IMG/VR virus record: IMGVR_UViG_649633094_000002
Length of the DNA stretch: 32,869 bases
Source: an uncultured virus (IMG/VR IMGVR_UViG_649633094_000002)
Taxonomy: Duplodnaviria > Heunggongvirae > Uroviricota > Caudoviricetes
Strand: one strand, 5' to 3'
Shown here: piece after piece, positions 3,620-25,471 of the stretch
Numbering within the stretch: the first letter of the stretch is position 1
How the letters are laid out: each line of letters opens with the position of its first letter
Made by a program: the position numbers and the translations under genes
The notes under the pieces: generated by a model
Seen by the model: the letters and a program-made list of their open reading frames with translations, nothing else
Told to the model about the DNA's origin: nothing
Databases searched by the model: none

Positions 3620-3693
3620 TTACTTCTACTCCTTTTTATACTGAATTTGGTGCGAAATTCCTTGTATAATCATTATACCAAAAGAGTAGAAGT

Positions 3694-4291: not shown

Positions 4292-4307
4292 GGCTCTTTT
4301 CTATATT
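4268..4307. repeat. Perfect 40-bp palindrome at the tail-to-tail hsdS junction
   Basis: AATATAGAAAAGAGCCTCAG|CTGAGGCTCTTTTCTATATT; both strands encode NIEKSLS-stop. Confidence 0.95.
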
Positions 4308-7324: not shown

Positions 7325-10300
7325 GCTACGATTCCTCCATCGTCATATAAGTATTGGTTCAGTTCCATAATAACCTCATGGAGCTGTCCCTCAAATCGGC
7401 GGTCAATGCCTTTGAATCCGCCATTATTCTTGAAAGCACCCTGTTCAAACATCTGCTCATCAAGCACAGCTTCTTCAAGCATGACCTTCTCTATACGTTT
7501 CAGCCAGTCAAGCTGAACCTTGTTAAACTTGTGGTTCTGTCTCAGCTTTGCAAAGGCATTTTTTACCCTTGTTTCATGACTTATCAGCGCCGAGCCAATA
7601 GCCTGCTGCCGAACAAATGCGATAATATCCGCAACAATATCTTCGTTTGTCATTTCATTCCAAGCTGTATTAAGCTGTTTTTCCGTGAAATCATGACGGT
7701 CAAGCTCCATTTTCAGCTCTTTGAGAGTAGCCCTTGTCAACTCAGAGGGGCGAGTGCATACGATTTTGAGTGCATTTATTTCATTAAGGTTCTCCACAAC
7801 AAATTTTCTGAATGCTTCAATATAGTCTTCGGGTTTGCTTGCCTTGCCGTAACCTCTTTCATGTGATACGACCTCATCATCATGATCGTCTATTACAACT
7901 GGACGCTTTCTATGTGTTCTGTCTTTATCAAGCACAGCAAATGCCTCCGAGCATTCCAAAGCTCTCTTTGTGGAGTCGGCAACTTTGCCGTCATTCAGCT
8001 CTTTTGCAAAAGCATTAAGGTCTTTACCGCCTGTCAGGTATATAAATTGCTCAAGAGCTTTTGCACTGATCTTACGGCTTTTCCTTTGCAGTTTGGCAAT
8101 AATCAAACTGAGCTGATATGCCTGTTTGTCCTTCTCAACAACTCTCAAACCGTTAAGTAAGTCCTCAAAGGTAGTCTGGGGATTTGGTGTAACAGGCTTC
8201 ATATTGCTTACAGGCTCTAAGGTTTCATAGACACCTACGGGATCATAGATCTCGAAGTGGTCTTTGTCTATCTTACTGCACAATCTCGTAGCTCTGCCGA
8301 GCATCTGCTCAAACAGGATACGGGACTTGATACGACGCATAAATACAAGATTGACGATCTCAGGCACATCAATACCTGTTGTCAGCAGGTCAACAGTAAC
8401 AACAACCTTTGGATAGGCTTCATTCTTAAACTGCCGTATCGCTTCAAGTATCTTCTTTTTATTGCCACCCTCTATGCTTCCGGTGATTTTCTTGACTACA
8501 TCGTTATCAATACCGTATTTCGAGTAAATATCTTTCAGTATCTTTACGATAAGGTCAGCATGATCGTCATCGACCGCATAGATAAGCGTTTTGCCCTCAC
8601 CGTCAGGATTGAAGTCCATAGCGATTTCATTAAACACGGCTAAATTGAACTTCTCAGTAATTACGTCCTTATTGAATTTGTCTATTTCAAACTTCATATC
8701 GTCCTCAAGCTCATCGCTGTTGAGGACTTCGCCCGTGTTCGGATCGTAGATTGCGAGCGTTTCACCCTTTTTGTATTCAATGCCGTTATCACGGAGCTTA
8801 GTGTGAATATCATGCGGAGCATCGTGATCGACAAGATAACCGTCAATGACAGCTTCTCTGTAAGAGTATGTAAACACGGGCTTTCCGAAAATCTCTGTTG
8901 TATGCAGAGCAGGAGTAGCCGTGAGAGCAACCTTGACAGCATCGAAATACTCTATAACAGTACGATATTTGCTGATATAATCTTCCTGATTACGATACAG
9001 CATTTCATCATCGCTCAATTCTTTGTCGAGCGTATAACCTCTATGCGCTTCATCAACAACAATCAGGTCATAGTCAGAAACAGAGGGCATTGTGCCATCT
9101 TCGTTGTATATCAGGCGTTTTACAAGGCTCTGGACAGTAGCTATATGTATCTTTGTTTCCTTATCAATCTCTTTTTCGTCAAGACCTTTGATATTATATA
9201 TCTCGTCGAGAGTCATTAAATCCTCTATCTTGACTTCCTTGAATACATCGGCTGCCTGTTCACCGAGCGCAGTTCTGTCCACAAGGAACAGAATACGTCT
9301 GAAACGGTTGCTCTTGATAAAGCGGTATATCATTCCGAGGATTGTTCTGGTCTTACCGGTTCCCGTAGCCATAGACAGCAACGCTGTTTTCTTACCATCA
9401 ATGATAGCATTCTCAGCAGCTTCAATAGCTCTTATCTGATATTCACGCAGATTCAGTCCATCTGGATCACGCAGTAAATCGTATGGGGTATTCTGCAACG
9501 TCTGATTAGCAGAAGCAATATCCTTATCGAGCATTTCCATAAGACCGTCAGGGCTAAACCAACCTTGCAGAGCCTTTGGAGTATTCGCACCGTCACGCAG
9601 ATCAAGAAACCATATTCCGGATTTCAGCTCTATCTGTTTCAGATACTTTCTGCCATTAGTAGCAAACACAAACGGAACTTTATAGCCGTTCCAATCTTTG
9701 ATAACATAATCGCTATGCTCCGATTTTATCATACGGGCATAGTCTTTGCACTGATAGTCTATTACAGACGGAATATCTATACTTGCTTTCTTTGCTTCAA
9801 TAATAGCAACAAGTTTAAGCCCCACAAAGAGAGCATAGTCCGCATAACCACCCTTAGTTACCGTAGAATCAGTCGGAAACTCAGCGATAGCAAGGTTACG
9901 TCCCTTTTGTGGTCTGGTTCCCTTAGAATAGCGAAGATTGTTTGTATCAACCTCCCAGCCGTACTTTCTGAGCTGATCATCAATGATAATGCGTGTTTCA
10001 GCTTCTGAAAGTTCCATTGCTTCTGTAACTTCTGCTGACTTGTCGGCTCTTTCTTTTGAAGTTGATCCGTCGGTAGCTGTTACAACAGGTTCAGCCTTAG
10101 CAGCTTTCGCAAGCTGTTCCTCTAAGCCTTTGATTATGCTTTCATAGTCAGGGATAGGCTCATTCTGGGGCATAACAAAATCAGGTGCTTTGAAGCTGTA
10201 ATCACCATACACCTCCATAAACCACACAGCAAGCCTGAATGCCATTCTGAGCAAAGATTTAGCGGTATCAACCGAATCCTCATACTTATGAACAGCGTCA

Positions 10301-10581
10301 TTACGCTTCATTCTGAGAGAATACAGTATATCATCGATTCTTCCACCACGATCAATAAGCCCCTCACGTTTCAGGATTTTTATTCTATTGGCGTGAGTAT
10401 TATCGTAATCAGGCTCGTCAAGCCCCTCGTTCGCAAATATCTCCTGTACAAGACGTTCAGCAAACATTCCGAGCTTATAAATACACGCATTAGGATCGTT
10501 ATAGAGATAGCTTTCAGCAGTTTTTCCGATTTTAGCAAGAGTTCCCCAATACTTGCTCAAAAAATCAAAATTAGATTTCAT
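7321..10581 (-). CDS. hsdR: Type I R-M restriction subunit
   Basis: Nuclease motif ADYALF...IEAK, Walker A ATGTGKT, DEAH, LTATP and QMLGRATR helicase motifs; GGAGGTG RBS. Confidence 0.96.
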   Translation of the reverse strand: MKSNFDFLSKYWGTLAKIGKTAESYLYNDPNACIYKLGMFAERLVQEIFANEGLDEPDYDNTHANRIKILKREGLIDRGGRIDDILYSLRMKRNDAVHKYEDSVDTAKSLLRMAFRLAVWFMEVYGDYSFKAPDFVMPQNEPIPDYESIIKGLEEQLAKAAKAEPVVTATDGSTSKERADKSAEVTEAMELSEAETRIIIDDQLRKYGWEVDTNNLRYSKGTRPQKGRNLAIAEFPTDSTVTKGGYADYALFVGLKLVAIIEAKKASIDIPSVIDYQCKDYARMIKSEHSDYVIKDWNGYKVPFVFATNGRKYLKQIELKSGIWFLDLRDGANTPKALQGWFSPDGLMEMLDKDIASANQTLQNTPYDLLRDPDGLNLREYQIRAIEAAENAIIDGKKTALLSMATGTGKTRTILGMIYRFIKSNRFRRILFLVDRTALGEQAADVFKEVKIEDLMTLDEIYNIKGLDEKEIDKETKIHIATVQSLVKRLIYNEDGTMPSVSDYDLIVVDEAHRGYTLDKELSDDEMLYRNQEDYISKYRTVIEYFDAVKVALTATPALHTTEIFGKPVFTYSYREAVIDGYLVDHDAPHDIHTKLRDNGIEYKKGETLAIYDPNTGEVLNSDELEDDMKFEIDKFNKDVITEKFNLAVFNEIAMDFNPDGEGKTLIYAVDDDHADLIVKILKDIYSKYGIDNDVVKKITGSIEGGNKKKILEAIRQFKNEAYPKVVVTVDLLTTGIDVPEIVNLVFMRRIKSRILFEQMLGRATRLCSKIDKDHFEIYDPVGVYETLEPVSNMKPVTPNPQTTFEDLLNGLRVVEKDKQAYQLSLIIAKLQRKSRKISAKALEQFIYLTGGKDLNAFAKELNDGKVADSTKRALECSEAFAVLDKDRTHRKRPVVIDDHDDEVVSHERGYGKASKPEDYIEAFRKFVVENLNEINALKIVCTRPSELTRATLKELKMELDRHDFTEKQLNTAWNEMTNEDIVADIIAFVRQQAIGSALISHETRVKNAFAKLRQNHKFNKVQLDWLKRIEKVMLEEAVLDEQMFEQGAFKNNGGFKGIDRRFEGQLHEVIMELNQYLYDDGGIVA

Positions 10582-10677: not shown

Positions 10678-10843
10678 TTGTCATACAGCGAAAAAAATAT
10701 AGTTTCACACCGAGCTGATTGATTCATAAGTATCTGAAACAAGCTATAGATCATAGATATTAGATTATTCCATTCATCGCTACATCAACTATTTTCTGTA
10801 GAAAAAACGATAATTTTCTGTCGCGTTATGATAATTTTCTTGC

Positions 10844-11959
10844 ATGGAAAAGTTCATCTATTTTTCTGAGGTGGCATATGCTTGGTTTACGATGAGCCGC
10901 GAGGTTGAAGTAAAAGGAATCAAAATGGTAGCAACAGTCCCTGAAGATTTACAGATTTCTGTTGGTAAGATTACTGCTACCAAGAACCTTAATGACACAG
11001 ATAGCTTTTTGGCTGATTTAAGCAGCGGAAAGGCGATTGCTCCAACGGAAAATATCATGTGGTCGAACACTGTAAATTTAAGCCAGTATTATGAATTTGG
11101 TCGCTTAATTCCTGCTTCATCCTCTAAAGGAACGAATATATTCTTTACTCCCGATGCAACAGAAGAAGGTAAAAATGTTGCAAGAAATGCAAAATATATA
11201 CAAGCAGCAACAGGATTGACGCCTACAACTAGCACTTCTAGTATGATGGCAACACTTCATGCTAGAACGGGTGCCGCTGATGCATGGGCGGCTCCAACTG
11301 GAACGGGTTATACTCAAGCTGTAAACTACATGGATACGCAGGATGATGGATATTATGTTGATATTCCCGTATGGATTAGAACTTCCACCACTGAAAATGT
11401 TGATCTTAAAGTTGAGGGCTTTGTAATTCCTAAGGATGCAACTAATAAAGGTTTAAAGGATGCAACAGCGGCTGAACTGTATAAGGCTACCCGTGTAGCC
11501 ATCTTACCTGCTGCTGGCGATACAACTAATGCCGAAAAAGGTACTAAAGGTGTAATTGACCTTAAGGATGGTGCTGCTACTGATACACCTGGTTGGAGTA
11601 GTGTTACCTCAATAATTGACTATTATGGCACCAGTGCAATGCACGGGATAGCTAATGGTGCAGTTAAAGCTGCAGTAGACGCAAATGGTACAGAGAATCA
11701 CGTTGAGGGTGGTTCAGAAACCAATGCTGATAATTGGTCATTAATTTACGAAGCTGCTACTGTATATAATGGAACAGCGAGCATTGCAACAATTGCAGGT
11801 GCGACAGCTGGTGCAGAGTATGGAACAGCAACACAGCTTTGGATTCGTGTATGGCTTGAAGGCGAAGATCCCGAGTGTTGGAACAAGAATGCTGGGCAGG
11901 ATTGGAATATATCGCTTAAGTTCTCAAAGATTGAACCTGCCGCACCATCTGATCCGTAA
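10844..11959 (+). CDS. Fibre/surface protein cassette 1 (SipW-class YAWF motif, signal peptide absent)
   Basis: Homology to the other two cassettes begins at YAWFTMSREVEV (10877). The 11 codons before it are not a signal peptide, and there is an in-frame TAA at 10832. Conserved blocks: FGRLIPASS, GYYVDIPVW, RVWLEGEDPECW. Confidence 0.75.
   Translation: MEKFIYFSEVAYAWFTMSREVEVKGIKMVATVPEDLQISVGKITATKNLNDTDSFLADLSSGKAIAPTENIMWSNTVNLSQYYEFGRLIPASSSKGTNIFFTPDATEEGKNVARNAKYIQAATGLTPTTSTSSMMATLHARTGAADAWAAPTGTGYTQAVNYMDTQDDGYYVDIPVWIRTSTTENVDLKVEGFVIPKDATNKGLKDATAAELYKATRVAILPAAGDTTNAEKGTKGVIDLKDGAATDTPGWSSVTSIIDYYGTSAMHGIANGAVKAAVDANGTENHVEGGSETNADNWSLIYEAATVYNGTASIATIAGATAGAEYGTATQLWIRVWLEGEDPECWNKNAGQDWNISLKFSKIEPAAPSDP
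10854..10897 (+). repeat. Putative serine-recombinase att-like site 1, overlapping the YAWFTMS codons
   Basis: TCATCTATTTTTCTGAGGTGGCATATGCTTGGTTTACGATGAGC is 39/44 identical to 15799-15842. It has outer TCATC/GATGA dyad symmetry. Confidence 0.7.
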
Positions 11960-11991
11960 CAACCACACTAAACAAAACATGGATATTTGTG

Positions 11992-12022
11992 TCCCCCCTC
12001 CTCGCAGAGGGGGGATTTTTTT
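11992..12022 (+). terminator. Intrinsic terminator after cassette 1
   Basis: TCCCCCCTC-ctcgca-GAGGGGGGA followed by a T run. Confidence 0.85.
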
Positions 12023-12154
12023 AACTATACACATCATCGCGATGCAACACTATACTGTAATCGGCAAAAAAGATGAACCATTAAACATAAAAATATTCTC
12101 ATAATAACGCTGTCACAAAGCCGTGCTATACTTATTCTGAAAGGAGTTGATAGC

Positions 12155-14188
12155 ATGGCTGAAATAACTATAATACAGCCAAGAGAACAGCCCCGCAGAA
12201 AACTTCGCTGCGGGGCATATTGCAGGGTATCGACGGGGCGAGAGGAACAGCAGCACTCATATGAGGCGCAGCGGCTGTGGTTCATGACGCTGCTCGGTGG
12301 CTCGCAGACAGAGGAGCTTGTGGACATCTATGCGGACATAGGGATAAGCGGAACGACCACCGACCGCCCTGAGTTCATGCGTATGCTTAACGATTGCAGG
12401 CATGGGTGCATTGACCGCATACTCACCAAGTCGATCAGCCGCTTCGCCCGCAACACCCGTGATTGTCTTGCAATACTGCGTGAGCTTCGGGAACTGGGCG
12501 TGACGGTTTTCTTCGAGAAAGAGAACATCGACACTGCGAGAACTGCCGACGAAATGATGATAGCGATTATGGGCGGTCTTGCACAGGAAGAATCGCAGTC
12601 CATTTCGAGGAACATTCGCTGGAGCCTGCACCGCAAAATGGCGGCAGGGACGCTCGGCGTGGCGCGTGTACCTTACGGTTATGACAAGGTGAACGGCAGA
12701 CTTGTGATAAATGATGAACAGGCGGCGGTCGTCCGGCGCATTTTTTCGCTGTATCTCGGCGGAATGGGTGCAAGACGAATCGCCGCTCTTTTCAATTCCG
12801 AGGGTCTGCCTGCACCCGAATCCACCGCATGGAACAATATCACTGTCTACAAAATGCTCGCACAGGAGATGTATCTCGGTGATATTCGCTGGCAGAAAAC
12901 AGTGTCCGTGTTTATGGGGACAAGCCACCCGAACACGGGGCAAGCTAACAGCTTCTATGTCAGTGGAAGTCATGAGCCGATAATTGACCGAGAGACTTTT
13001 GAATCGGCGCAGGCTTTGCGGTTAAAAAGCGTTCGTCCCGCCGAAAAGACCAATAACAGCCCGTTTCGTCAAAAGGTTGTCTGCGGAATTTGTGGGAGGT
13101 CGTACTACTTGATTGGTGCGGCTCGCCCTTACTGGCAATGCACGAGGCGATTTGATCTTGTCAAGCCCTGCACGAACGATATTCTGCATGATGAAACGCT
13201 TTCCGACTTGTGGCGAGTGATATGGACAAAGTTCACCAACCATGCCGATGATGTTCTCCTGCCGCTTATTGGGCAGCTTGAAAGGATCGCTGAAAAGGTC
13301 TCTGAAAATGCAGAAAGCGGTCGCCTTGACGAAATAATGCAACAGAAAATGACCCTTCGCAAAATGTGTGCGGAGGGTCTTATTTCTTATGGGGAAGTCA
13401 TAACCTCCGAGACCGAGCTTAACGCCGAGTATTCCTCCTTGATTGAGAATTGCAGAAAACAAAAGGAGCATAATTCACTTTTGATAAATGAGGTAAAAAC
13501 GCTCTACAAAGCGGTTTCCGCTGCTCATAGTGATTGTTGTGCCGATATTCTCAAATCTATCCGATTTGCCCACGATACCGCTGATTTTGAGCTTGTGAGC
13601 GGCATACATATCATTATGAGCATCCCGAAGCATAAAAAACGAATAATTACATCACATAATCCTATAAATGCGATTCGCTCACTTGCCTTGTGCGGAGGCT
13701 GCGGAGGAAGGCTTTCACGGCGCAAGGTCGAGGGTGTATATCTCTGGAAATGCTCAAACCGCCGTTGTTCTTATTGGAGGTCAAAGCATACGGACGAAGA
13801 TATGATAGGCAACACAACTGACGTTTTTTCAAAGGTATACGCTGACCCACGCTTAGTAAGTCTTAAATGTTCCATGACGGAATATCGTCCAACGGAAAGT
13901 GTTCTCACAATGCTGGAAAGCCTTGAAAAGCTGATAGCTTTGGGAGAAAACGCTGAAATGCTTATCAAAGCGGCGGTTCATCTTGCAGAGGAAAAAATCG
14001 GCTGCATTGAGTACAACGTGAAAACCGAGCAGACCGCGCATATAGAGGACGCTATCAAGAATTGTGTGGAGCTGCCGGAGTTTCTAATACAAGCGGTCAG
14101 GCACATCTATGTCACGCCCGACAGAGTGCGTGTTAAGTTCATCAACGGAAAGACGGTCAAAAGTGAAAGGAGCACCAACCATGAGTAA
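12155..14188 (+). CDS. Large serine recombinase with an extra C-terminal zinc-ribbon module (apparent gene fusion)
   Basis: YCRVST catalytic motif, DRILTKSISRFARN, PYGY, zinc ribbon CGICG, and a second CGGCG...C..RRC module; AAGGAG RBS. Confidence 0.92.
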   Translation: MAEITIIQPREQPRRKLRCGAYCRVSTGREEQQHSYEAQRLWFMTLLGGSQTEELVDIYADIGISGTTTDRPEFMRMLNDCRHGCIDRILTKSISRFARNTRDCLAILRELRELGVTVFFEKENIDTARTADEMMIAIMGGLAQEESQSISRNIRWSLHRKMAAGTLGVARVPYGYDKVNGRLVINDEQAAVVRRIFSLYLGGMGARRIAALFNSEGLPAPESTAWNNITVYKMLAQEMYLGDIRWQKTVSVFMGTSHPNTGQANSFYVSGSHEPIIDRETFESAQALRLKSVRPAEKTNNSPFRQKVVCGICGRSYYLIGAARPYWQCTRRFDLVKPCTNDILHDETLSDLWRVIWTKFTNHADDVLLPLIGQLERIAEKVSENAESGRLDEIMQQKMTLRKMCAEGLISYGEVITSETELNAEYSSLIENCRKQKEHNSLLINEVKTLYKAVSAAHSDCCADILKSIRFAHDTADFELVSGIHIIMSIPKHKKRIITSHNPINAIRSLALCGGCGGRLSRRKVEGVYLWKCSNRRCSYWRSKHTDEDMIGNTTDVFSKVYADPRLVSLKCSMTEYRPTESVLTMLESLEKLIALGENAEMLIKAAVHLAEEKIGCIEYNVKTEQTAHIEDAIKNCVELPEFLIQAVRHIYVTPDRVRVKFINGKTVKSERSTNHE

Positions 14189-15779
14189 TATAAAGACAGC
14201 GGCAAACGTGACACTTATCCCTGCAAAGGAGCAGGCAAACAGCGTATTTACAGGCAAAAAGCTGAAAGTGGCGGCTTATTGCAGGGTCAGCACAGACGAA
14301 ACCGAGCAGATGAACAGCTTCGGAGTACAGATCGCGTACTACACCGACTACATCGGCAGCCGACCCGACTGGCAGATGATCGGCATTTTTGCGGACGAGG
14401 GCATCAGCGGCACGCAGACCGAGAACCGCACACAGTTCAACCGCATGATCGAGCTGTGCCGCAAGGGGCGCATCGACCTGATACTCTGCAAGTCGATCAG
14501 CCGTTTTGCGCGGAATACCGTCGATTGCCTTGATTTCGTGCGTGAGCTGAAAAGGCTGAATGTGGCGGTACAGTTTGAAAAGGAGAACATCAACACGCTG
14601 TCGGTCAGTTCGGAGTTTGCGATAACGCTGTACGCAAGCTTCGCGCAGGCGGAAAGCGAGAGCATCAGCCGCAACATAACATGGGGTATCGAAAAGTCGT
14701 TCAAGGAAGGCAACGTGCGGTATCAGATGAGATACACGCTGGGGTATCGGCTGGTGGACGGCGTTCCGCAGATAATCGAGGACGAAGCCGTGATCGTGAG
14801 GGAGATTTTCAGCCTTTTTGCGGGCGGTATGAGTCTGCGAAAGATAGCAGAAAGACTAACCTCTGAGGGTGCAGCCCGCAGAAATGGCAGCACCGTCTGG
14901 AACCGCGACCATGTGAACTCTATCCTCAAAAACGAAAAATATGTGGGAGACGCCATTTTGCAGAAGTACTATACGGTCGATTGCCTGACCCACACCTGTG
15001 CGAAGAACAACGGTCAGAAGCCAAAGTATCTGGTGCAGAACTGTCACGCCCCGATCATCGACCGCGAAACTTGGGACAGGGTGCAGCTGGAGTTGTCCCG
15101 TCGCAGTGCTATGACGAAAGGCAACGCTCGCGGGGGACGTTACCGCACTGAATACGCCCTGAGCGAGCTGCTCGTCTGCGGCAGCTGCGGCTGCAATTAC
15201 AAGCGTGTGCTGTGGAAAAGTGGCACCGGCAAGCGTGCCGTGTGGCGCTGCAAAAGCACTCTTGACGGTGGTAAGGCGAGGTGCGATTCGCCCAGCCTGC
15301 ACGAGGAAGCACTGCACAGCGCGATAGTGAGGGCGATAAACGAGCAGATACTTGACAGTAGCGGCTTTGATAGACAGTCTGCTCTTTCCGCAGATACCCT
15401 TGAATCCGAAAACGCCGACCTTGAACGCAGGATAGCTTCGGTCAGTGCTCGCCTTGGAGAAATAGAAGTTGAGCGTAACCGCCTGCTTGCGGATATTTCT
15501 GCTATTCCTGCCGACGTTCTTGGTAGCAAGTTAAAGCTCCTGCACACGGAGGAACAGGAGCTGAAATCCAAACTTGATGAACTGAACAGCAAGCGCGATT
15601 CGGGGCGGCATGATCTGTACCGTATCAAGGCGGCGAGGAATCTGACGCATGGTATTGAAGCGCTCGGGGAGTTTGATAATGATCTGGTCAGACAGGTTGT
15701 TGAGGAGATCACTGTTAAGAGCGCTGATAAGGTCGTTGTGAAGTTTTGTGGTGGCGAGAAGGTAACAGTTAAGGTTTAA
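14181..15779 (+). CDS. Large serine recombinase
   Basis: AAYCRVSTD, DLILCKSISRFARN, CGSCG zinc ribbon and a coiled coil. The start is moved to ATG 14181, which has an AAGGAG RBS and overlaps the previous stop. Confidence 0.93.
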   Translation: MSNIKTAANVTLIPAKEQANSVFTGKKLKVAAYCRVSTDETEQMNSFGVQIAYYTDYIGSRPDWQMIGIFADEGISGTQTENRTQFNRMIELCRKGRIDLILCKSISRFARNTVDCLDFVRELKRLNVAVQFEKENINTLSVSSEFAITLYASFAQAESESISRNITWGIEKSFKEGNVRYQMRYTLGYRLVDGVPQIIEDEAVIVREIFSLFAGGMSLRKIAERLTSEGAARRNGSTVWNRDHVNSILKNEKYVGDAILQKYYTVDCLTHTCAKNNGQKPKYLVQNCHAPIIDRETWDRVQLELSRRSAMTKGNARGGRYRTEYALSELLVCGSCGCNYKRVLWKSGTGKRAVWRCKSTLDGGKARCDSPSLHEEALHSAIVRAINEQILDSSGFDRQSALSADTLESENADLERRIASVSARLGEIEVERNRLLADISAIPADVLGSKLKLLHTEEQELKSKLDELNSKRDSGRHDLYRIKAARNLTHGIEALGEFDNDLVRQVVEEITVKSADKVVVKFCGGEKVTVKV

Positions 15780-15798
15780 TATTTTATCATCTTTGCGG

Positions 15799-15842
15799 TC
15801 ATCTCTTTTTCAAAAGTGGAATATGCTTGGTTTACGATGAGC
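15799..15842 (+). repeat. Putative att-like site 2
   Basis: TCATCTCTTTTTCAAAAGTGGAATATGCTTGGTTTACGATGAGC, a direct repeat of 10854-10897. Confidence 0.7.
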
Positions 15843-16895
15843 AAGGAAGTTGAAGTTACAGGAATTAAGATGACAGCTTCAGTTCCTGAGAATATTCAAG
15901 TTTCACTTGGTGCTGGTACAAATGGTACAGCAGGTTTAACAGGCGCTTCGTTTGTGGAAGCAAACGATGGTTCAACTCGTACACTTACTGTCACAACTCC
16001 TAGTGTAGCAGACGGAACAACAGATTGGACTAATACTGTTGCAATATCCGATTACTATACTTTTGGTCGTTTGACTCCTGCTACATCAAAAGATGGCAAT
16101 GATATATTCTTTACTTCTGATGCTACTAGAGCTGGTCGTGCGCTGTTACAAGACACTTATGATGCAAATCAAAAAGCACTTACTGGTAAGAGTTATGCGG
16201 CATTCGTTCAAGCAGATACAGCTGCAACAAGTAAATATCAGGCATGGACAGAGCCTAATGATGTAACTGGTGCTTCAATGACCACAACCACAAAGGGTGC
16301 TACTACTAATGTGACTATTGCGGATATTGATAAGACTGGTGGAGGTTACTATGTTGACATTCCTGTATGGTTTAGAACATCTATTACGGGTGCGGAAAAT
16401 GAGAATGTTCAGCTTGCTGTAATCGCAACAATTACTCCTAAAAAGACAGGTGCTACTGCTGATGCAGTAACTACGCCTGATTTGTATCTTGCTGCTCGAT
16501 GTGCATTGATTCCTAGTGGTGGAAGTGCAGTTGGAGCAATTATGGATAGCACAACAAAGTATTACCATACTGAAGAGGGCGCTGTAGATAGTGTTAATGG
16601 TTATGCTCCAGCATCTGCGTATACAGTAAATGCTGCAACCGATAATTCGACTGCTCCTACATGGGTTCAGGTAGATCCTGTTACACAAGCCACAACTGCG
16701 GCTATAAATGATGGAATTGCTGGTGATGGTGAGGCGGTAGTCCTTGTGCCTAAGTCTACATCAACAAGTGGCGAATATGGCTCTGCTGCCGCTTATACTT
16801 TACGTGTTTGGCTTGAAGGCGAAGATGTTAACTGCTGGGATGAAACTGCCGCTCAGGACTTCCAGATTGATCTTAGATTCATAAGAAAGAGCTAA
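15816..16895 (+). CDS. Fibre/surface protein cassette 2 (SipW-class YAWF motif, signal peptide absent)
   Basis: Begins YAWFTMSKEVEVTGIKMTA, with no RBS and no room for a signal peptide after the recombinase stop. It has the same conserved blocks (FGRLTPATS, GYYVDIPVW, RVWLEGEDVNCW). Confidence 0.75.
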   Translation: MEYAWFTMSKEVEVTGIKMTASVPENIQVSLGAGTNGTAGLTGASFVEANDGSTRTLTVTTPSVADGTTDWTNTVAISDYYTFGRLTPATSKDGNDIFFTSDATRAGRALLQDTYDANQKALTGKSYAAFVQADTAATSKYQAWTEPNDVTGASMTTTTKGATTNVTIADIDKTGGGYYVDIPVWFRTSITGAENENVQLAVIATITPKKTGATADAVTTPDLYLAARCALIPSGGSAVGAIMDSTTKYYHTEEGAVDSVNGYAPASAYTVNAATDNSTAPTWVQVDPVTQATTAAINDGIAGDGEAVVLVPKSTSTSGEYGSAAAYTLRVWLEGEDVNCWDETAAQDFQIDLRFIRKS

Positions 16896-16931
16896 TCTTT
16901 ATAGTATATGAACTCATAAATTATGCAATAT

Positions 16932-16963
16932 AGCCCCTCTCTCCAAATTCGGAGAGAGGGGCT
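16932..16963. terminator. Probable bidirectional terminator between convergent cassettes 2 and 3
   Basis: Perfect 13-bp stem AGCCCCTCTCTCC-aaattc-GGAGAGAGGGGCT. Confidence 0.8.
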
Positions 16964-16995
16964 TATGGTATGCTTTATGGTTTTATATACAACTA

Positions 16996-18273
16996 TTAGC
17001 TTTCGATCTTTGCAAACTTCAGAGCAATTGCCCAATCCTGTCCAGCATTATCATTCCAGCATTCAAAGTCTTCACCATCAAGCCAAACTCTTATGATGAG
17101 CTTCTTAGCAGCACCATACTGTCCATTAGTTGTACTACCTGCAACAGTTGCTACATTAGACCAGGCAGAAGCAGCAGAAGTAGGTGTTATGCAAGTGTAG
17201 TCAGTATAAGTACCAGCATAAGTATCAACCACTCCATCACCATCGGGATCAGTTGCTGTTGTAGCTGCTGCACTTACGCCAGCATACATCTGCCCCTCAG
17301 CACCCTTGGCATACTTTGGCTGATTTGCAGCAGTAAGTGCTGACGGAAGAGTTCTGCCAGTAGTAGCAAGGTTAGCAGAGTCGACAACAGATGTAAGAGT
17401 ATTAGCCCACGGATTTGCAACGCCTGTAATAGCTGAAAATGTTCCATCTGTAACATTAGCTGATGTATCCCATGCATCTTTCAAAGGAATTATATTATTA
17501 GTGTTTGCAACTGCTGCATCACCTGCGGTACAAGCAACAGCACCAGTAGAAGCATTTTCAGAAACTGTCTCACCATCAAGGATTGCAACCCTAATTGCTC
17601 TGTACAGTTCAAGATCTGTTTCCTTGTTTGATGCGCCTTCGCCAGTATTTAAACTTCCAGGTAAAACATAGCCATCAACAGAAAGATTTATAGCTTCATT
17701 AGAAGAGGTTCTAAGCCATATAGGAATGTCAACATAATAACCATCATCTTTTGTTTTATTCCAAGTATCTGCCTGAGCATAAGCACCTGTACCTACAACG
17801 TTCCAGTTATCAGCTGTTGAAGTCTTAGCATGCAGCGTAGTTTTGTAAGTTGTTCCAGTGCCAGCGTCCGCAACAGGTGTGAGTTTATCTGTCGCTTGAT
17901 AATAAGAAGCATTACCCTTAACTGTTTTACCAACACCATTTGCATCAGGCGTAAAGAATATCTCTCTGCCGTCATATGAAGATGCAGGTATCAATCTACC
18001 AAACTGGTAATAAGCACTTATATCTGCACTATTTGACCAATCCCACGATTTTTCAGGAGCAGAAGCACCGCCATTGTCAGCAGCACCAGCCGATGCAGAA
18101 TACAGAACACCAGTACTAGCTCCAAGAGAAACACCATTCTCATCAACTTCAGCAGAATTGGGTGTATCGACATCTGCTAATCTTCCTAACGAAATCTGCA
18201 GGTCTTCTGGTACGGTTGCAGTCATCTTAATACCTGTGACTTCAACTTCCCTGCTCATGGTAAACCAGGCATA
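16996..18273 (-). CDS. Fibre/surface protein cassette 3 (SipW-class YAWF motif, signal peptide absent)
   Basis: The frame extends upstream of ATG 18258 as Y-A-W-F-T-M-SREVEVTGIKMTA. An in-frame TAG at 18313-18315 excludes a signal peptide. Conserved blocks: FGRLIPASS, GYYVDIPIW, RVWLDGEDFECW. Confidence 0.75.
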   Translation of the reverse strand, partial: YAWFTMSREVEVTGIKMTATVPEDLQISLGRLADVDTPNSAEVDENGVSLGASTGVLYSASAGAADNGGASAPEKSWDWSNSADISAYYQFGRLIPASSYDGREIFFTPDANGVGKTVKGNASYYQATDKLTPVADAGTGTTYKTTLHAKTSTADNWNVVGTGAYAQADTWNKTKDDGYYVDIPIWLRTSSNEAINLSVDGYVLPGSLNTGEGASNKETDLELYRAIRVAILDGETVSENASTGAVACTAGDAAVANTNNIIPLKDAWDTSANVTDGTFSAITGVANPWANTLTSVVDSANLATTGRTLPSALTAANQPKYAKGAEGQMYAGVSAAATTATDPDGDGVVDTYAGTYTDYTCITPTSAASAWSNVATVAGSTTNGQYGAAKKLIIRVWLDGEDFECWNDNAGQDWAIALKFAKIES

Positions 18274-18296
18274 TATCGCTTTAACGGTATAGATAC
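18253..18296 (-). repeat. Putative att-like site 3, inverted relative to sites 1 and 2
   Basis: Minus strand GTATCTATACCGTTAAAGCGATATATGCCTGGTTTACCATGAGC. The right half matches sites 1 and 2 at 20/22; the left half keeps ATCT at the same offset. Confidence 0.6.
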
Positions 18297-18576
18297 ATAG
18301 CCTTAAAACCGCCTAATATCGTCATTTTTCACACTTTATTTGAACGTTCAAAAAAGTGTGTTTTCGTAGATGACCGAGCCTATTTTGTACCGACTTTCAT
18401 TTTCAATATCTAAAATTGATATTTCGTATATCAATCATTCATAGCTGTGATATTGAACGCAAAAAATAATAATATAATAATTTTAACCTCGCATTTCTTA
18501 TTCATCGTGACAAAATATCGGTGCATTATTTATCCATAGTGAACTTGTAATTTGTTTCGATAAAAGCACAAAGCAA

Positions 18577-18614
18577 TCTCCCCTTGTATCATTGAGAAAT
18601 AATACAAGGGGAGA
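18577..18614 (-). terminator. Hairpin downstream of the AAA/PD-(D/E)XK gene
   Basis: TCTCCCCTTGTAT (18577-18589) pairs with ATACAAGGGGAGA (18602-18614). Confidence 0.65.
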
Positions 18615-18640
18615 AATTATCTCTGTGAAATTTTGAAAGT

Positions 18641-20242
18641 TTACTTTGTGACCGTTTCTATCGTGCAAGTATGAACCTTAGTCTTTTCATCATAGTTGAT
18701 GCCGACAAGTATGATCTTACCTTTACGGTTCTTTAGGATAGTCGGATATTCACGGTCTTTGATCTGCTGAATGGCTGCCGTGTCAGACTTGTTCCATTTC
18801 AGCTCGATAACAAGTGTCGGATCGGTAGCCTTACGAGGAATGAAAACAACATCAGCGATACCCTTACCGCTTGGAAGCTCCTCGATCTTCATGTAGTTAT
18901 CAACACAAACGATATAGGCAAACTTGATAACATACCTGAGTGCCTGCTCGTCATTGTAATAGGTGGGAGCATAGTTCATCATACGAATTTCGTCAATGGC
19001 TTTCGCAACAGCTTCTTCATTTCCGCTTATTGTATCTTGCAGGAGCTTTTTGGAATTACTGAGAAGATCGACCAGCACTTCATGCTTGGTCATTTTAAGG
19101 ATATTGGAAAATTCAAGCCTGATTTCGTCGTTCGGGATATGAACAAACTCCCTGATGATCTCGTCCTCGTCATCGCCCTCTCCGAGTATCTCAACTTTCT
19201 GTTCGTATGCCAGATAGCCGAGGTGAACAAGTAAGGTCAGAACATCGTCTTTCAGCTTGAATCCTGTTACGTCATTCTTAAAACTGCTTGTGTTGATCTC
19301 AATGGTCTCGCCAGCAATAAGCTGTGCAATATCCCCTTGCAGACCTTCTTCGTCCATTTCAATATAGTCAAGCAGATTATCCGCCGCCGAGGTCTGTCTC
19401 CAATACGATGTGTATTTTTTCTTTTTGGCAGCACAGATAACCGAATACGGGTTGTAAACAGACTGAACATCACCAACAGTATAGCCGTCATACCATTTCT
19501 TCATCTTGCGGAAGTCAGCGTGATATTTGTCGCATATCTTATGAACATCTTCTTCCAAAAAACCAGTATATTTTGCAAATTCATCAGGCTCTATGATTGA
19601 ATGTTCCTCAAAATCAGATATAGCAGACTGTGAACCATCTTTCTTTATAGGCAGGATACCTGTCATATATGCTGCGGCAAATATCTTGGGCGTTGTTGAA
19701 CTGCTTTTAAAAAGCATACGCAAGAACAGTAGGTATTCTTTGGAATTGACCATAGACTCACGAATGGGTGCGTCCCACTCGTCTATTATCATCACAATTT
19801 TTCTGCCTGTTTTTTCTACTGCGTTAATAAGCGTTTGATCGAATGATGAACCTTTTATGATGTTTGTATCAGTAGCAAGGATTTCATTTTCAACGTTGTC
19901 CTTAATGAATTGAATCAGCTTCTCAGGTTCAACTTTTTCAAGCAAATTTGTCATATCAAGATAAATAACATGATATTTATTGATATTACTCTCATAGGTT
20001 CTATCGCTGCTGATCTCATACTTTTCAAAAAGGCTGTGAGAATCGCAAGTGTAGTCATAGTAGGCACAAAGCATTTTAGCAGCATAAGACTTGCCGAAAC
20101 GGCGCGGACGGCTGATACACACCAATTTGCTCGGAGTATTGATACGCTGATTTATCAAGGCGATAAGACCTGTCTTATCAATGTAGTCACCATTCAGCAC
20201 TTCCTCAAATCCGCTGTTGCCGGGATTGAGATATGTTCCCAT
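18641..20242 (-). CDS. AAA-ATPase-like protein with a C-terminal PD-(D/E)XK nuclease domain
   Basis: YIDKT, RPRRFGKS Walker A, IIDEWD Walker B, YNPYS, and C-terminal GIADVVF...VIELK. The start is moved to ATG 20242 (GGAGGTG RBS; the promoter lies inside the longer ORF call). Confidence 0.88.
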   Translation of the reverse strand: MGTYLNPGNSGFEEVLNGDYIDKTGLIALINQRINTPSKLVCISRPRRFGKSYAAKMLCAYYDYTCDSHSLFEKYEISSDRTYESNINKYHVIYLDMTNLLEKVEPEKLIQFIKDNVENEILATDTNIIKGSSFDQTLINAVEKTGRKIVMIIDEWDAPIRESMVNSKEYLLFLRMLFKSSSTTPKIFAAAYMTGILPIKKDGSQSAISDFEEHSIIEPDEFAKYTGFLEEDVHKICDKYHADFRKMKKWYDGYTVGDVQSVYNPYSVICAAKKKKYTSYWRQTSAADNLLDYIEMDEEGLQGDIAQLIAGETIEINTSSFKNDVTGFKLKDDVLTLLVHLGYLAYEQKVEILGEGDDEDEIIREFVHIPNDEIRLEFSNILKMTKHEVLVDLLSNSKKLLQDTISGNEEAVAKAIDEIRMMNYAPTYYNDEQALRYVIKFAYIVCVDNYMKIEELPSGKGIADVVFIPRKATDPTLVIELKWNKSDTAAIQQIKDREYPTILKNRKGKIILVGINYDEKTKVHTCTIETVTK

Positions 20243-20287
20243 AAAAATCACCTCCGTGATCGTAACACGATACACTTTATCTATTCT

Positions 20288-20316
20288 ATTATACCCTATA
20301 TCAAACAAAATTGCAA
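20288..20316 (-). promoter_or_regulatory. Promoter of the AAA/PD-(D/E)XK gene
   Basis: On the minus strand: TTGCAA, 17-bp spacer, TATAAT. Confidence 0.7.
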
Positions 20317-20366
20317 GAGGTCACAACTAATTTCTTCCGAAAAATCGTAGGCTGTGACCTCCTGCA
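20312..20366 (-). terminator. Hairpin after the recombinase triplet
   Basis: TGCAAGAGGTCACA (20312-20325) pairs with TGTGACCTCCTGCA (20353-20366), with one mismatch. Confidence 0.5.
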
Positions 20367-20375
20367 TATGTAACA

Positions 20376-22013
20376 TTACTTCTCTACCGCCACATTCATT
20401 TCATGCCCATCCTTGAAGATGATCTGCACCTCGTTCTTGGACAGTACCCTGATAACCTCAATGACCTTGCGGACGGTCACATCGTCATATTCGGCAAGGT
20501 GGCAGTCATGACGGCGCAGCTCCTCACCGACAGCCATGAGAGCGTATTTCTTCTCATCACTCAGCTTGGCTTTGGTCTGCATATCGTCAAGCTGGGTTTT
20601 CAGGTAGGCTTCCTCGTCGTTCAGGCTCTCAAAGTTTTTGTCGAGGGCATCTTCATCGACTGCACCGCTTGTGATCTGACGGACAAGTGAATCCCTCTCG
20701 TCCTCTATTTCTTCAAGGCGTTTCTGTATTTTGGCAGTCTGTTTCTGCATATCGCCATTGTCGCCGATGACAGCAAGGATATTCTGCTCCATTCGGGCAA
20801 GCATATCGCCGTTTCGGGAATAGACAGCGTTCAGAGCCTTGACGATAGCATTTTGCAGGCTTTCTTCGCTGATTGAGGGAGAATGTTTGCAGTATTTACT
20901 GCCGTGATCGAGCCTGCTGATACACCGCCACACGATACGCTTGTGACCGTGTGAAGTCCATGTTACCCTTCGGTATGCCGTTCCGCACTCTCCGCATATT
21001 AGAATATCGGTCAGGGCGTATTTGCTTGAATACTGCCCCAATTCCGTCCTTGCCTTTGCAGAGCGTTTCTTGATCGCTCCACGCTTCGCAAGTTCCTGCT
21101 GAACACGATTATATGTATCACGGTCGATAATGGCAGGGTGGCAGTCATGAACGATGTACTTATTTTTCTCGCCGTTGTTCTTGACACGCTTGTGGGTGAT
21201 GCAGTCGATGGTGTAGCTTTTTTGGAGGATTGCATCGCCTGCGTATTTCTCATTTTTGAGGATGAAATTCACATTCGCCCTGTTCCATGTTGACGAACCG
21301 CTTCGGCGTTTGATACCCTCCGACTGCAATTGATCTGCGATGCCCTGCATACTCATACCGTCAAGAAACATGACATAGATACGGCGGACAATCTCCGCTT
21401 CTTCCTCCACTATATACGGCACACCGTCCTCGCCCATGCGGTAGCCGAGTGTCTTGTCGAGAACATACTTGACCTTGCCCTCACGGAAAGATTTCTCGAT
21501 ACCCCACGATACATTTTTGCTGATACTCTCGCTCTCTGCCTGAGCGAATGAACCATACAGCGATATGATAAATTCGCTGTTCATCATCATGGTGTTAATG
21601 TTCTCTTTCTCAAAAATAACGCCAATGCCGAGCAGTCTCAGTTCACGGATATATTCAAGACAATCCACAGTATTTCGGGCGAAACGGCTGATTGACTTGC
21701 ACAGCACAAGGTCGATTTTCTTTTGCTGACACTTGCGTATCATCTTGTTGAACTGCTTGCGGTTCTTGGTCTGCGTACCGCTGATGCCCTCGTCTGCGAA
21801 TATGCCTGCAAGCGTCCATTCGGGGTTGGAGTTGATGAGGTTCGTGTAGTATTCTATCTGCACCTGATAGCTGTTCGCCTGTTCCTCGCTGTCGGTGGAT
21901 ACACGGCAGTAGGCAGCCACACGAATTTGCCTGTATTTGGACTGTTTCAGCTCGGCAGGCGAGAGGGCAGGTATCATCGTAACATTGGAAGCCATATCGT
22001 TATTCTTCGGCAT
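20376..22013 (-). CDS. Large serine recombinase (third gene of the triplet)
   Basis: AAYCRVSTD, DLVLCKSISRFARN and CGECG; closely similar to 14181-15779; AAGGAGG RBS. Confidence 0.94.
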   Translation of the reverse strand: MPKNNDMASNVTMIPALSPAELKQSKYRQIRVAAYCRVSTDSEEQANSYQVQIEYYTNLINSNPEWTLAGIFADEGISGTQTKNRKQFNKMIRKCQQKKIDLVLCKSISRFARNTVDCLEYIRELRLLGIGVIFEKENINTMMMNSEFIISLYGSFAQAESESISKNVSWGIEKSFREGKVKYVLDKTLGYRMGEDGVPYIVEEEAEIVRRIYVMFLDGMSMQGIADQLQSEGIKRRSGSSTWNRANVNFILKNEKYAGDAILQKSYTIDCITHKRVKNNGEKNKYIVHDCHPAIIDRDTYNRVQQELAKRGAIKKRSAKARTELGQYSSKYALTDILICGECGTAYRRVTWTSHGHKRIVWRCISRLDHGSKYCKHSPSISEESLQNAIVKALNAVYSRNGDMLARMEQNILAVIGDNGDMQKQTAKIQKRLEEIEDERDSLVRQITSGAVDEDALDKNFESLNDEEAYLKTQLDDMQTKAKLSDEKKYALMAVGEELRRHDCHLAEYDDVTVRKVIEVIRVLSKNEVQIIFKDGHEMNVAVEK

Positions 22014-22869
22014 TGTTAACCTCCTTGTATGCGATGCGCTTTCCGTTTCTGAACTCTATCGCTATAACCTTGTTTTCATCAACGGTTATTCTGCTTACGA
22101 TCTGCAATAAAAGCTCCGTATCAATCGTTTCGGAAGGCTCATGTCCTGCAATCAGGTCTTGAAGCTCCTGCGTGATATACGGCTCTCTGCTGTATGTGCA
22201 GGCGTTGTATTTCATGACTGCCAGCGCAAGCGTTTTCGACTTTATCAGCTCATATTCAATGGGCTGAACAGCACAGAGCTGAGATATTTCCTTTTCTGCC
22301 TGCCGTATTTCTTCGGTAGGCTCATACACAGTCAGAGGCGTACCTGTTTCAAGCATATCGGAATTACCGACAACATCGTTCATAATGCTCTGCACCACCG
22401 ACACGAAATAATCATCGGGAATCCTCGGCTTAAAGTTCGCACAGCCCTTACGAGTACACCGCCACCGTTTGTAGCCTGTCCTGTCGGAGAAATGCACCAT
22501 ATTCGTACCGCACACGGTACAATAGGACAGCTTTTTCAGCACCGTGTAGGTATCGGGGACTTTCACTTTTTTGGCTGAGTTTCCGATATTTGAAGCGCCG
22601 AAAATGTCCTCCGAAATGATTGCAGGATAGCCGTCCGCACCGCAGTACCGCCCGTCACGGAGAATGCCGTACACCTTGTCGATAGCTTTTTTCTTATCCT
22701 CCGAGAAATAGGGTATCTGTTCATCATAGAGTGCTGCACCGATCTTACTGCCAGATAAGCCGTTTGCCTTTTCGTCAAAGATACGGCGGATTATCTCGGC
22801 TTCACCAATATCAACAGCGATCCTGCCCTCTGCCCAAATGTAGCCGTAGGGGGTCTTTTTAATTGCCAT
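22000..22869 (-). CDS. Recombinase-domain/zinc-ribbon protein lacking the catalytic domain (middle gene of the triplet)
   Basis: Starts at a TPYGY recombinase-domain motif, with YPAIIS and CTVCG...WRC; no YxRVS motif. The likely start is ATG 22869, overlapping the upstream gene. Confidence 0.82.
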   Translation of the reverse strand: MAIKKTPYGYIWAEGRIAVDIGEAEIIRRIFDEKANGLSGSKIGAALYDEQIPYFSEDKKKAIDKVYGILRDGRYCGADGYPAIISEDIFGASNIGNSAKKVKVPDTYTVLKKLSYCTVCGTNMVHFSDRTGYKRWRCTRKGCANFKPRIPDDYFVSVVQSIMNDVVGNSDMLETGTPLTVYEPTEEIRQAEKEISQLCAVQPIEYELIKSKTLALAVMKYNACTYSREPYITQELQDLIAGHEPSETIDTELLLQIVSRITVDENKVIAIEFRNGKRIAYKEVNNAEE

Positions 22870-24403: not shown

Positions 24404-24510
24404 CAGCTCCTGTTTTTACTGTTCAGATTTTGATACATATTTACGGTTTAGATGACCTGTTGCTTTTTGAATACGGAACAAGCAATTCGCCTGTTCCGTA
24501 CCAATTCCGT

Positions 24511-25465: not shown

Positions 25466-25471
25466 TTAAAC

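Follow-up and report, generated by a model that had tools for sequence, protein, structure and literature searches.

Large serine recombinases at the signal-peptide junction of a SipW-associated secreted protein: an element that splits and rebuilds the gene, and a putative store of alternative mature parts

The window considered here is a stretch of DNA of 32,869 nucleotides (nt) filed under an uncultured virus (IMG/VR record IMGVR_UViG_649633094_000002). Within it lie three homologous genes, cas1, cas2 and cas3, which lack the signal peptide, or head, carried by most of their closest relatives, together with genes for large serine recombinases (LSRs). The right part of the window belongs to a 35.6-kb element, W, which inserts, excises and relocates, and the excision of which rebuilds a complete fibre gene; cas3 is the mature part of that resident, expressible gene, which W splits and releases. 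Beyond this, the headless genes are read here, with a probability of roughly 0.55, as the mature parts, in alternative versions, of a single secreted fibre-like protein, each severed from promoter and head by LSRs at one TA dinucleotide, and the array that holds them as a store of alleles exchanging with an expression site, for which the recombinases of a smaller module, Y, would be the most likely catalyst. In other words, recombination at this junction exchanges mature domains, as is observed for the insertion and excision of W and as would hold, from the comparison of genomes, for Y.

Element W enters and leaves a gene at its signal-peptide junction

The DNA of cas1, cas2 and cas3 becomes alignable at ATATGCYTGGTTTACSATGAGC, which encodes Y-A-W-F-T-M-S. 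All three genes are without a signal peptide, and in-frame stops lie 14-15 codons upstream of the shared start, at 10832 for cas1, 15777 for cas2 (which also terminates the recombinase gene upstream) and 18313-18315 for cas3. Of the five recombinase-like open reading frames (ORFs) in the window, four (SR677, SR556, SR545 and SR514) carry PF00239, PF07508 and PF13408 (Resolvase, Recombinase and Zn_ribbon_recom) above the Pfam cut-offs, which is the LSR architecture, and the fifth, 22000-22896, has no PF00239. A first-pass annotation of the window had already described the common codon, the missing signal peptides with their upstream stops and the LSR genes between and beside the cassettes, and the alignment, the stop positions and the Pfam assignments bear it out. 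Its related site of ~44 bp, within which each gene was said to begin, is borne out in part: the right 21-22 nt are common to all three genes, but the left arm, of ~50 nt, is common to cas1 and cas2 only, that of cas3 being different and forming the end of W. The 21-mer at the start of homology occurs three times in the 4.48-Mb genome of the organism (G000, with contigs C1, C2 and C3) when up to three mismatches are allowed, against no occurrence of a reversed control. A fourth headless copy, cas4, lies outside the window at C3:99166-100284 (-).

W is a repeat of 35,567 nt, the two copies of which, C3:261546-297111 and C1:2524077-2559642, are 99.994% identical; the C3 copy ends at window position 18270. 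On C1 the order is head2, TA, W, TA and the 3' part of a gene for an FtsX-type permease, and on C3 it is the 5' part of the same permease gene, TA, W, TA and cas3, such that TA is the only sequence common to the four junctions. The ends of W are 25-nt imperfect inverted repeats, with 15 of 25 positions matching, and this anatomy is that of a serine-integrase attP; a passage of PMC3783163 describes a 25-bp half-site for the A118 integrase. The corresponding recombined and unrecombined sites are all observed: attL on C1 and attR at window 18273, a further attL/attR pair within the gene for the permease, and attB as the junction of head2 with cas3. At its left (far) end W carries a complete fibre operon, the first gene of which, the head3 gene, lies 141 nt inside the element.

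The movement of W is seen directly when four public runs of the same organism (X1, X2, X4 and X5) are compared over window positions 10000-20000, as contigs and not as reads. X2 holds 58-letter unitigs for both the W-cas3 junction (depth 234) and the head2-cas3 junction (depth 203). A contig of 22,713 letters in X4 runs from the window through cas3 directly into head2 and for 10,121 letters further, and one of 13,999 letters in X5 likewise joins cas3 to head2; in these two runs only the restored head2-cas3 gene is present, and the right end of W abuts the 3' part of the permease gene as well as two other sequences. X1 has the reference form and, in addition, a unitig that joins the 5' part of the permease gene to cas3 (depth 7.9 against 28), which is the precise product of excision of W from the C3 form. 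Both products recur among protein clusters, the intact 460-residue protein P0001 on seven contigs and an in-frame permease-cas3 fusion, P0130, on one. Since the head2-cas3 junction appears in three runs of three studies, it is unlikely to be a chimera of assembly.

Taken together, the W junctions, the contigs of the runs and the protein clusters place the crossover at the TA and identify cas3 as part of a resident gene, which is headless in the window because W sits at that TA. A crossover at the signal-peptide/mature junction had been proposed at the first pass, and that much stands: the crossover is the TA of the Tyr codon, and cas3 is found fused to a head in other runs. The swapping of cassettes proposed along with it is not what is seen at cas3, since the fusion is due to the 35.6-kb W leaving or entering. 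Likewise, the junction variation that had been predicted across runs is present at the cas3 site, but the cas1 and cas2 sites are uniform in the contigs.

Some further observations concern W and its kin. P0130 comprises 647 residues, the first 222 of the FtsX-type permease being fused in frame to cas3. Contigs C1 and C3 share W with crossed flanks, and in X4 and X5 the left side of C3 is joined directly to the right side of C1; because of these joins, the 352-kb contig may be part of, or exchanging with, the 3.69-Mb contig in some cultures. Inside W, C3:277303-280310 is a 3.0-kb repeat with at least 12 further full-length copies on C1, C2 and C3 (99.7-99.97% identical) as well as diverged and partial ones, an active insertion element or intron. 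A second W-like recombinase pair lies at C3:135099-139119 (+), with 64% and 73% amino-acid identity to SR514 and SR545, ~4.5 kb upstream of minor-subunit-like genes with AWFT signal peptides. A short ORF like 22000-22896 also stands upstream of a recombinase gene in one locus from a relative (L022); for the product of 22000-22896 itself, a part as accessory or directionality factor can be no more than guessed at.

The secreted protein, its expression locus and the probable scars of insertion

A large protein collection yielded 503 relatives of the cassettes, and heads were counted in the best 120. An N-terminal signal peptide (a head of at least 25 residues) is present in 80 of these 120, has the form MKAN..KK(L/I)(I/V)PAAG..SA.ML..ST and ends directly before YAWFTMS (...STST/YAWFTMS), as had been anticipated when signal-peptide-bearing homologues were predicted; the other 40 start at or after the YAWFTMS point or are truncated by contig ends. 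P0001 is 100% identical to cas3 with a head of 40 residues in front. In 54 loci of relatives from other genomes (two of which, L028 and L021, the contig of G034, are the same contig and are counted once), the usual state is a single full gene beside a three-gene operon for an EAL-domain protein, a 239-residue protein and a SipW/archaeal-type signal peptidase I; the full gene adjoins this operon in 25 of the 54. The peptidase scores 95.8 bits against TIGR02228 (cut-off 51.85), as measured on the orthologue of the C1 gene (80% identity) in G034, a second species of the genus, and 111 bits against the Bacillus SipW equivalog, under the cut-off of 190 for that family.

The protein is therefore tied to SipW by its operon, but membership of the TasA/camelysin group, suggested at the first pass, is not established. 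Pfam returns no family for the three cassettes and NCBIfam none for full-length P0001. The AlphaFold model has a mean pLDDT (predicted local distance difference test) of 69, and with Foldseek it finds no match in the PDB at E <= 0.001, the TasA fibre chain 8aur_A appearing at E 0.35; in a VIA-wide search with this pLDDT-69 model the best Z is 5.0, with donor-strand pilins and archaeal TasA-like pili at Z 3.4-4.2. A fibre fold is at most suggested by the model, and the label of a SipW-associated, secreted, probably fibre-forming protein appears reasonable.

The expression locus predicted for such a protein, with promoter, signal peptide and sipW, is present in the genome, but on contig C1. There, tblastn with head peptides reveals three tandem heads on the minus strand, with the EAL/239-residue/SipW-type operon divergent and just upstream. 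Head1 and head2 both end in ...ST, followed by a TAA stop that spans the junction. After head1 the TA continues as ACTCGTTGATACCAAATAGTTGACGG, which is the inverted-repeat partner (17/25) of the 25 nt before cas4. This suggests, from the pairing of the arms, that a further element, V, split an original head1-cas4 gene, and that V would have brought head2-cas3, 125 nt inside its left end, much as W brings head3. The arms of V and W both begin TA-A, and an orphaned head therefore ends at once in TAA, and the gene of the element would come next behind the host promoter. The TA of the crossover supplies the opening two bases of the Tyr codon in ...T/YAWFTMS, and since the arm makes a stop after the orphaned head, insertion of V or W would silence the resident allele and put the allele of the element behind the promoter of the host. 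In this way V and W would replace the expressed fibre with their own version and displace the old mature part.

The same scars appear elsewhere. In G034, two orphan heads stand upstream of the expressed gene, each followed by a V-type arm, and the 125-nt unit differs by ~1 base between G034 and G000; no V-type right arm was found in G034. Searches with 80 heads (tblastn) gave six orphan heads in four loci of other relatives, with V- or W-type arms. These are six of 16 rows, kept at 44 bits or more; the ten rows at 25 bits or less were taken for chance hits, paralogues of minor subunits or a head in the wrong register, and left out. Tandem orphan heads are thus best seen as probable scars of repeated insertion and loss. 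Two sites, L005 2640-2760 (upstream of cas4, C3:~100590-100710) and C3:159096-159218, contain direct repeats of CAAAACNGTTGAC (read as GTCAACNGTTTTG on the opposite strand), which are iteron-like and resemble the distal part of the V-type arm.

Headless junctions are found 12 times, in eight of the 54 loci, with at least four kinds of left arm (the G034 contig counted once), and LSR genes are present in the same locus in six of the eight. The count leaves aside L038 (contig end), L058 (a head without Met in the inspected stretch) and L025, L033 and L053 (minor-subunit paralogues). In L022 a W-like end interrupts the resident operon, a plain insertion, and in L056 one cassette is truncated. The two Eubacterium ruminantium loci, L031 and L055, share no allele. 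In L030 (Ruminococcaceae bacterium FB2012), positions 11263-13037 hold a frameshifted SR556-like gene (70% amino-acid identity) and the remnant of an SR677-like C-terminus, inverted and directly after the expressed fibre gene, with neither cassettes nor recognisable arms; by its gene content this is a decayed Y-like module.

Module Y: a proposed allele store weighed against its alternatives

The coordinates of the cassettes, of W and of module Y are given in Table 1.

Table 1. Features of the window, with the heads on contig C1 (coordinates prefixed C1; all others are window positions)
Feature	Position	Strand	Basis and remarks
cas1, headless mature-domain allele	10877-11959 (ORF 10844/10877)	+	crossover TA 10877-10878
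cas2, headless mature-domain allele	15822-16895 (ORF 15816/15822)	+	TA 15822-15823, 43 nt past the SR556 stop
cas3, mature part of resident gene head2-cas3 (= P0001)	18273-16996	-	crossover TA 18273-18272
Tail-to-tail spacer, cas2/cas3	16896..16995	.	terminator-like hairpin in sequence
Recombinase-like ORFs (n=5)	12155-14188, 14109-15779, 20376-22013, 22000-22896, 22859-24403		Pfam
Solo Y-type left arm before cas1	10827..10876	+	P-type half-site + ~25 nt; six-arm alignment
Degenerate inverted B'-like half-site + TA (12053-12054)	12032..12054	-	12/21 matches; left Y junction
Module Y (3.77 kb)	12055..15821; 12053-15823 with junction TAs	+	two recombinases + two inverted arms only
P' arm of Y	12055-12079		
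SR677 of Y	12155-14188		
SR556 of Y	14109-15779		
P arm of Y	15797-15821		
W, right 14.6 kb	18274..32869	-	repeat, Pfam, junctions; 35.6 kb in all, extends past window
P arm of W	18275-18299		
AAA-ATPase/PDDEXK gene of W	18641-20308		Pfam
SR545 of W	20376-22013		Pfam
Recombinase paralogue of W without catalytic domain	22000-22896	-	between SR514 and SR545; Recombinase + Zn-ribbon
SR514 of W	22859-24403		Pfam
DUF5906 primase-like gene of W	25472-26845		Pfam
MobA/VirD2 relaxase of W	30409-31698		Pfam
head1	C1:2559971-2559870	-	behind TTGACA-17-TATAAT promoter; 225 nt upstream of head2
head2	C1:2559747-2559643	-	identical to P0001 head; then TA + W left end
head3	C1:2559499 onward	-	starts complete, distant paralogue
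Outer flank of array	681..1240	+	aligns (569 nt, 82%) to the DNA next to the G034 solo arm, L021 6224-6790; collinear with that arm
Type I restriction-modification island (two hsdS, hsdM, hsdR)	1280..10581	.	Pfam; outside the recombination system

The arms of Y are inverted repeats starting G(G/T)TCATCT. The right arm meets cas2 at a TA, and the left arm meets the degenerate half-site at a TA, beyond which lies the terminator of cas1; hybrid-type junctions and the two inverted arms are the only ones seen. Behind the solo arm of cas1 there is no recombinase gene, and its region is 81% identical to the arm region of a cassette, cas_a, in G034. From the form of these junctions, cas1 and cas2 would be held at hybrid sites of Y (P-arm, TA, B'), made by the same LSR chemistry as those of W.

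Y itself is present in G034 at 84% nucleotide identity over 3857 nt, with recombinases 82% and 90% identical in amino acids, the proteins of the SipW operon being 76-84% identical between the two species. Read from that operon, G034 has two orphan heads, a head fused to an allele E, then cas_c in the opposite orientation, Y, cas_b in the forward orientation, and cas_a in the opposite orientation joined to a solo arm. The W-free form of G000 has one orphan head, head2-cas3, cas2 in the opposite orientation, Y inverted with respect to G034, a remnant in the forward orientation, and cas1 in the opposite orientation joined to the solo arm. The head2-cas3 gene thus stands tail to tail with cas2 and Y, an arrangement that recurs in G034, where there are two such pairs. 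In both species Y lies between two inverted B' half-sites. The expression site has signal-peptide coding DNA as its outer arm, which shows no similarity to the GTTCATCT-type outer arms of the silent sites.

The contrast between frame and content in this array is marked. The non-coding and recombinase skeleton is 81-84% identical in DNA between G000 and G034, but the cassettes are only 31-49% identical in amino acids, both within and between the two genomes; none is orthologous between the species, and all five Y-type cassettes are intact ORFs. Since the skeleton is also shared, at 81-84%, with L081, a 2.8-kb metagenome contig, the array must be old. In L081 the solo arm and its flank are 81% identical to G034 and are joined at the TA to a cassette that matches E, the allele fused to a head in G034, at 98.9% over 1177 nt. 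The change from 98.9% to 81% is located at the TA, and the two E alleles differ at 7 of 1053 coding nt, all synonymous, four of the seven in the first 54 nt. Moreover, P0126, from another sample, is a head-bearing member of the 90% cluster of cas2, and P0002, 83% identical to cas3, starts MA/YAWFT, as expected behind a solo arm. The contig with P0002 and P0063 is likely a third Y-type array; it was not found among the 39 genomes of the genus. From E and L081, P0126 and P0002 it follows that alleles move between head-type and arm-type left flanks and that the break is at the TA. The array is accordingly read as an allele store because its skeleton is conserved, its cassettes are non-orthologous yet intact, and E is found both fused to a head and joined to an arm.

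A hairpin, CCCCCTCATTTCGGTGAGGGGG, is conserved in the tail-to-tail spacers (L021 7920-7945 and 14200-14225, both in G034, and L081 215-240). The 98.9% homology of E ends just beyond it in L081 (207) and no more than 10 nt from it in G034. The hairpin may act in termination or mark a second point of exchange.

An exchange catalysed by Y could proceed in two steps that use canonical integrase reactions only. Y would excise as a circle and integrate at a head (attP x attB), after which the new site, head next to P', would be resolved against a different hybrid site (attL x attR-type), so that a new cassette would follow the head. With a palindromic TA core, inversion of DNA would be possible besides excision, and such a core would explain why Y is inverted between the species and flanked by inverted half-sites. 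The orientation of integration by Bxb1 is said, in a report by Ghosh et al. of 2003, to depend solely on the central dinucleotide. Switching in the cultures behind the four runs would have to be too slow, or too conditional, to appear in their contigs. A tentative extension, possible but well short of even odds, is that Y is a domesticated two-LSR 'shufflon', in which the silent sites would be attR-type and the expression site attB, with V and W feeding in alleles that Y would archive. If so, it would be the first LSR-based system of surface-fibre variation, and the first that cuts exactly at the signal-peptide/mature junction.

Several results weigh against the reading of the array as an exchanging store. 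In all four runs positions 10000-18273 form one unbranched contig, in which neither joints nor loose ends occur at 10877, 12053 or 15822; this is a loose upper limit only, as contigs drop rare variants and slow or conditional switching could escape; in the same data the variants of the cas3 site (18273), at ~28-87% of the neighbouring depth, are visible. The exchange of cas1 and cas2 proposed at the first pass accordingly has no alternative junction to show in these contigs and is argued from genome comparison. In X4 and X5 an intact head2-cas3 site coexists with intact Y genes. The protein collection holds no head-fused copy of the cas1 or cas2 of the window itself, where the cas1 cluster has two members, with the 371-residue form on 26 contigs, and the cas2 cluster has four. 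The tail-to-tail partner of E in L081 differs from that in G034 and is not explicable by simple inversions of a G034-like array, such that single cassettes must move by another route too. In the window, a 21-nt remnant is all that decay has left at one cassette position. In a passage of PMC3783163, canonical serine integrases pair only attP with attB, or attL with attR when a directionality factor is present; under that rule a direct reaction between a head site and a hybrid site would be unorthodox. No candidate for a recombination directionality factor was identified. Y-type sites are also rare, being found in two of the 39 genomes of the genus (G000 and G034) and on one metagenome contig, L081, and their pattern occurs in none of 400 other genomes sampled from the family. 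The plasmid collection, from which the records of the organism itself may be left out, likewise holds none. Finally, for other families of element, plain insertion into a pair of convergent genes accounts for the headless copies; L034 has two such genes, occupied by two related elements, and both arms continue for at least 400 nt as element DNA. L034 had been a candidate for a solo arm and was rejected as such because its inverted arms run on into element DNA, and it thus represents two insertions.

The most serious of the alternatives, which we nevertheless regard as rather unlikely, is that cas1-cas4 are debris, that is 3' halves of genes hit by LSR elements, the heads of which were deleted later and which have no further role. 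The deletion could have occurred, for example, by homologous recombination between two copies of Y in divergent genes, and the differences between species would then reflect independent insertions and the horizontal replacement of entire segments. W behaves exactly so, and the TA is evidently a hot spot for insertion by several families of element, given the 12 junctions with at least four left arms in eight of 54 loci; the 21-nt remnant in the window and the truncated cassette of L056 are the decay that this account predicts, and no switching is seen in the four runs. Debris does not, however, sit easily with a solo arm at the same outer flank of an old skeleton in G000, G034 and L081 (81-84%), nor with five of five Y-type cassettes that are intact and of which none is orthologous between species. 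Moreover, the solo arm of L081 carries, with synonymous differences only, the allele that is fused to a head in G034, and the complete genome contains neither heads for cas1 and cas2 (tblastn, nine heads) nor left ends of Y-type elements (arm search, up to six mismatches). The position of Y between inverted B' half-sites in both species is impossible by simple insertion.

Movement of the alleles might instead be due to RecA-dependent gene conversion from silent donors, akin to that from pilS to pilE, in which case the recombinase sites would be incidental; we consider this improbable. The substrates would be the 5' block (YAWFTMSREVEV) together with the 3' block (RVWLEGED...AGQDW), or else the conserved hairpin of the spacers, and it is indeed the case that conserved blocks of 70-120 nt stand at both ends of otherwise unrelated cassettes, that the hairpin is conserved in the tail-to-tail spacers, that four of the seven differences between the E alleles fall in the first 54 nt, as at the edge of a conversion tract, and that in L081 one cassette, and not a pair, differs from G034. 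The blocks are, however, only 74-84% identical, with a perfect run of ~21 nt, and are for that reason a poor substrate for homologous exchange; furthermore, the silent copies lose homology exactly at the TA and carry recombinase-type arms, and the shift in L081 from 98.9% to 81% is at the TA itself. That the genes simply start at MSREVEV, or at an upstream ATG or GTG, and encode cytoplasmic proteins with an ordinary domain boundary at this point is an explanation to which we give almost no weight. About 19 of the best 120 homologues do begin so, within the 40 that have no head of at least 25 residues, but the typical signal peptide ends here in the other 80, the full genes stand beside the SipW-type operon in 25 of 54 loci, and the exact cas3 sequence occurs in P0001 with its 40-residue head, in agreement with the first-pass view that these are not natural starts.

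The outer part of the window is occupied by the restriction-modification island, a 9.6-kb insertion relative to G034 between the outer flank and the solo arm, which in G034 are 19 nt apart. Its two opposite-strand hsdS genes share an inverted repeat of 233-239 nt at 92% identity (1964-2202 and 4888-5120), a candidate for specificity-switching inversion as far as the repeat indicates. No recombinase gene is recognised between them, and an ORF of 464 residues at 2897-4291 has only a weak HsdS-like C-terminus.

Meaning and comparison with known systems

In practical terms, two contigs of the assembly are linked via the 35.6-kb repeat and are joined differently in other cultures. More generally, the DNA for a conserved signal-peptide cleavage region can serve several families of serine-integrase elements as a shared attachment site. 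Insertion there would swap the surface fibre for the version of the element, behind the host promoter, the old version being kept as an intact stored allele, and such replacement would offer rumen Firmicutes a means of varying their surface and of passing fibre alleles on horizontally. If Y does shuttle alleles to the signal peptide, the enzymes that drive programmed surface variation would include serine integrases as well as invertases, tyrosine recombinases and Piv, and the natural sets of attB, attP and hybrid sites, with unusual pairing rules, would interest those who engineer integrases. By title or abstract, no paper listed in word searches of open-access text describes an LSR cassette switch or a SipW-linked system of this kind.

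The closest precedents for W are SPbeta in spsM (with SprA/SprB) and skin in sigK, which passages of PMC5499854 and PMC5025042 describe as LSR elements that interrupt genes and rebuild them on excision. As in those cases, W lies inside an ORF at a 2-bp crossover, its precise loss restores the gene, and its attP arms are 25-bp imperfect inverted repeats. It differs in that it targets the junction between signal peptide and mature part in a secreted fibre-like protein, that it brings a paralogous fibre operon and an arm which makes a stop after the orphaned signal peptide, that several families of element use the same TA here, and that it has a relaxase rather than phage genes and also uses secondary targets. 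'Active lysogeny' is the concept under which such precedents may be placed.

For the Y array the nearest parallels are the invertible cassettes under a constant N-terminus of the Mu G segment (Gin), of Moraxella tfpQ/tfpI (Piv) and of the R64 shufflon (Rci). The array resembles these in having a promoter and N-terminal part outside it, alternative C-terminal parts tail to tail, sites at the junction of constant and variable parts, and recombinase genes beside putatively invertible DNA. In contrast, Y uses a pair of LSRs (677 and 556 residues) and not a small invertase, a Piv/IS110-type or a tyrosine recombinase; its outer half-sites are unlike one another (attB-type against hybrid), the constant part is the signal peptide only, and no inversion isomers are seen in the contigs of the four runs. 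Two adjacent LSR genes as a recombination module are shared with SCCmec (CcrA/CcrB), and CcrB is the best NCBIfam match of SR677 and SR556; the scores, 124 and 144 bits, are far under the equivalog cut-off of 900, and, unlike SCCmec, Y does not target rlmH, has no cargo and lies between inverted like half-sites.

In Neisseria, promoterless and N-terminally truncated silent copies (pilS) recombine into pilE by RecA-dependent conversion within conserved blocks. Both systems store promoterless, truncated copies of a fibre subunit, whether close to a single expression locus or at a distance from it, whereas the silent copies described here end at a recombinase crossover with a recombinase-type arm. 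With regard to TasA and CalY, a SipW-type peptidase gene in the locus and weak fold matches that include donor-strand fibres and TasA-like pili are points of likeness, and T-Y-A-W-F-T at the end of the signal peptide resembles the TasA/CalY motif, T-x-A-x-F-(S/T/N); the present protein differs in belonging to no Pfam or NCBIfam family and in being ~2x the length of TasA. Set against the gene-interrupting elements SPbeta and skin, what is new in W and its kin is the signal-peptide/mature junction as a target, the sharing of that target by several families of element, the replacement fibre operon, the built-in stop codon and the tandem head scars.

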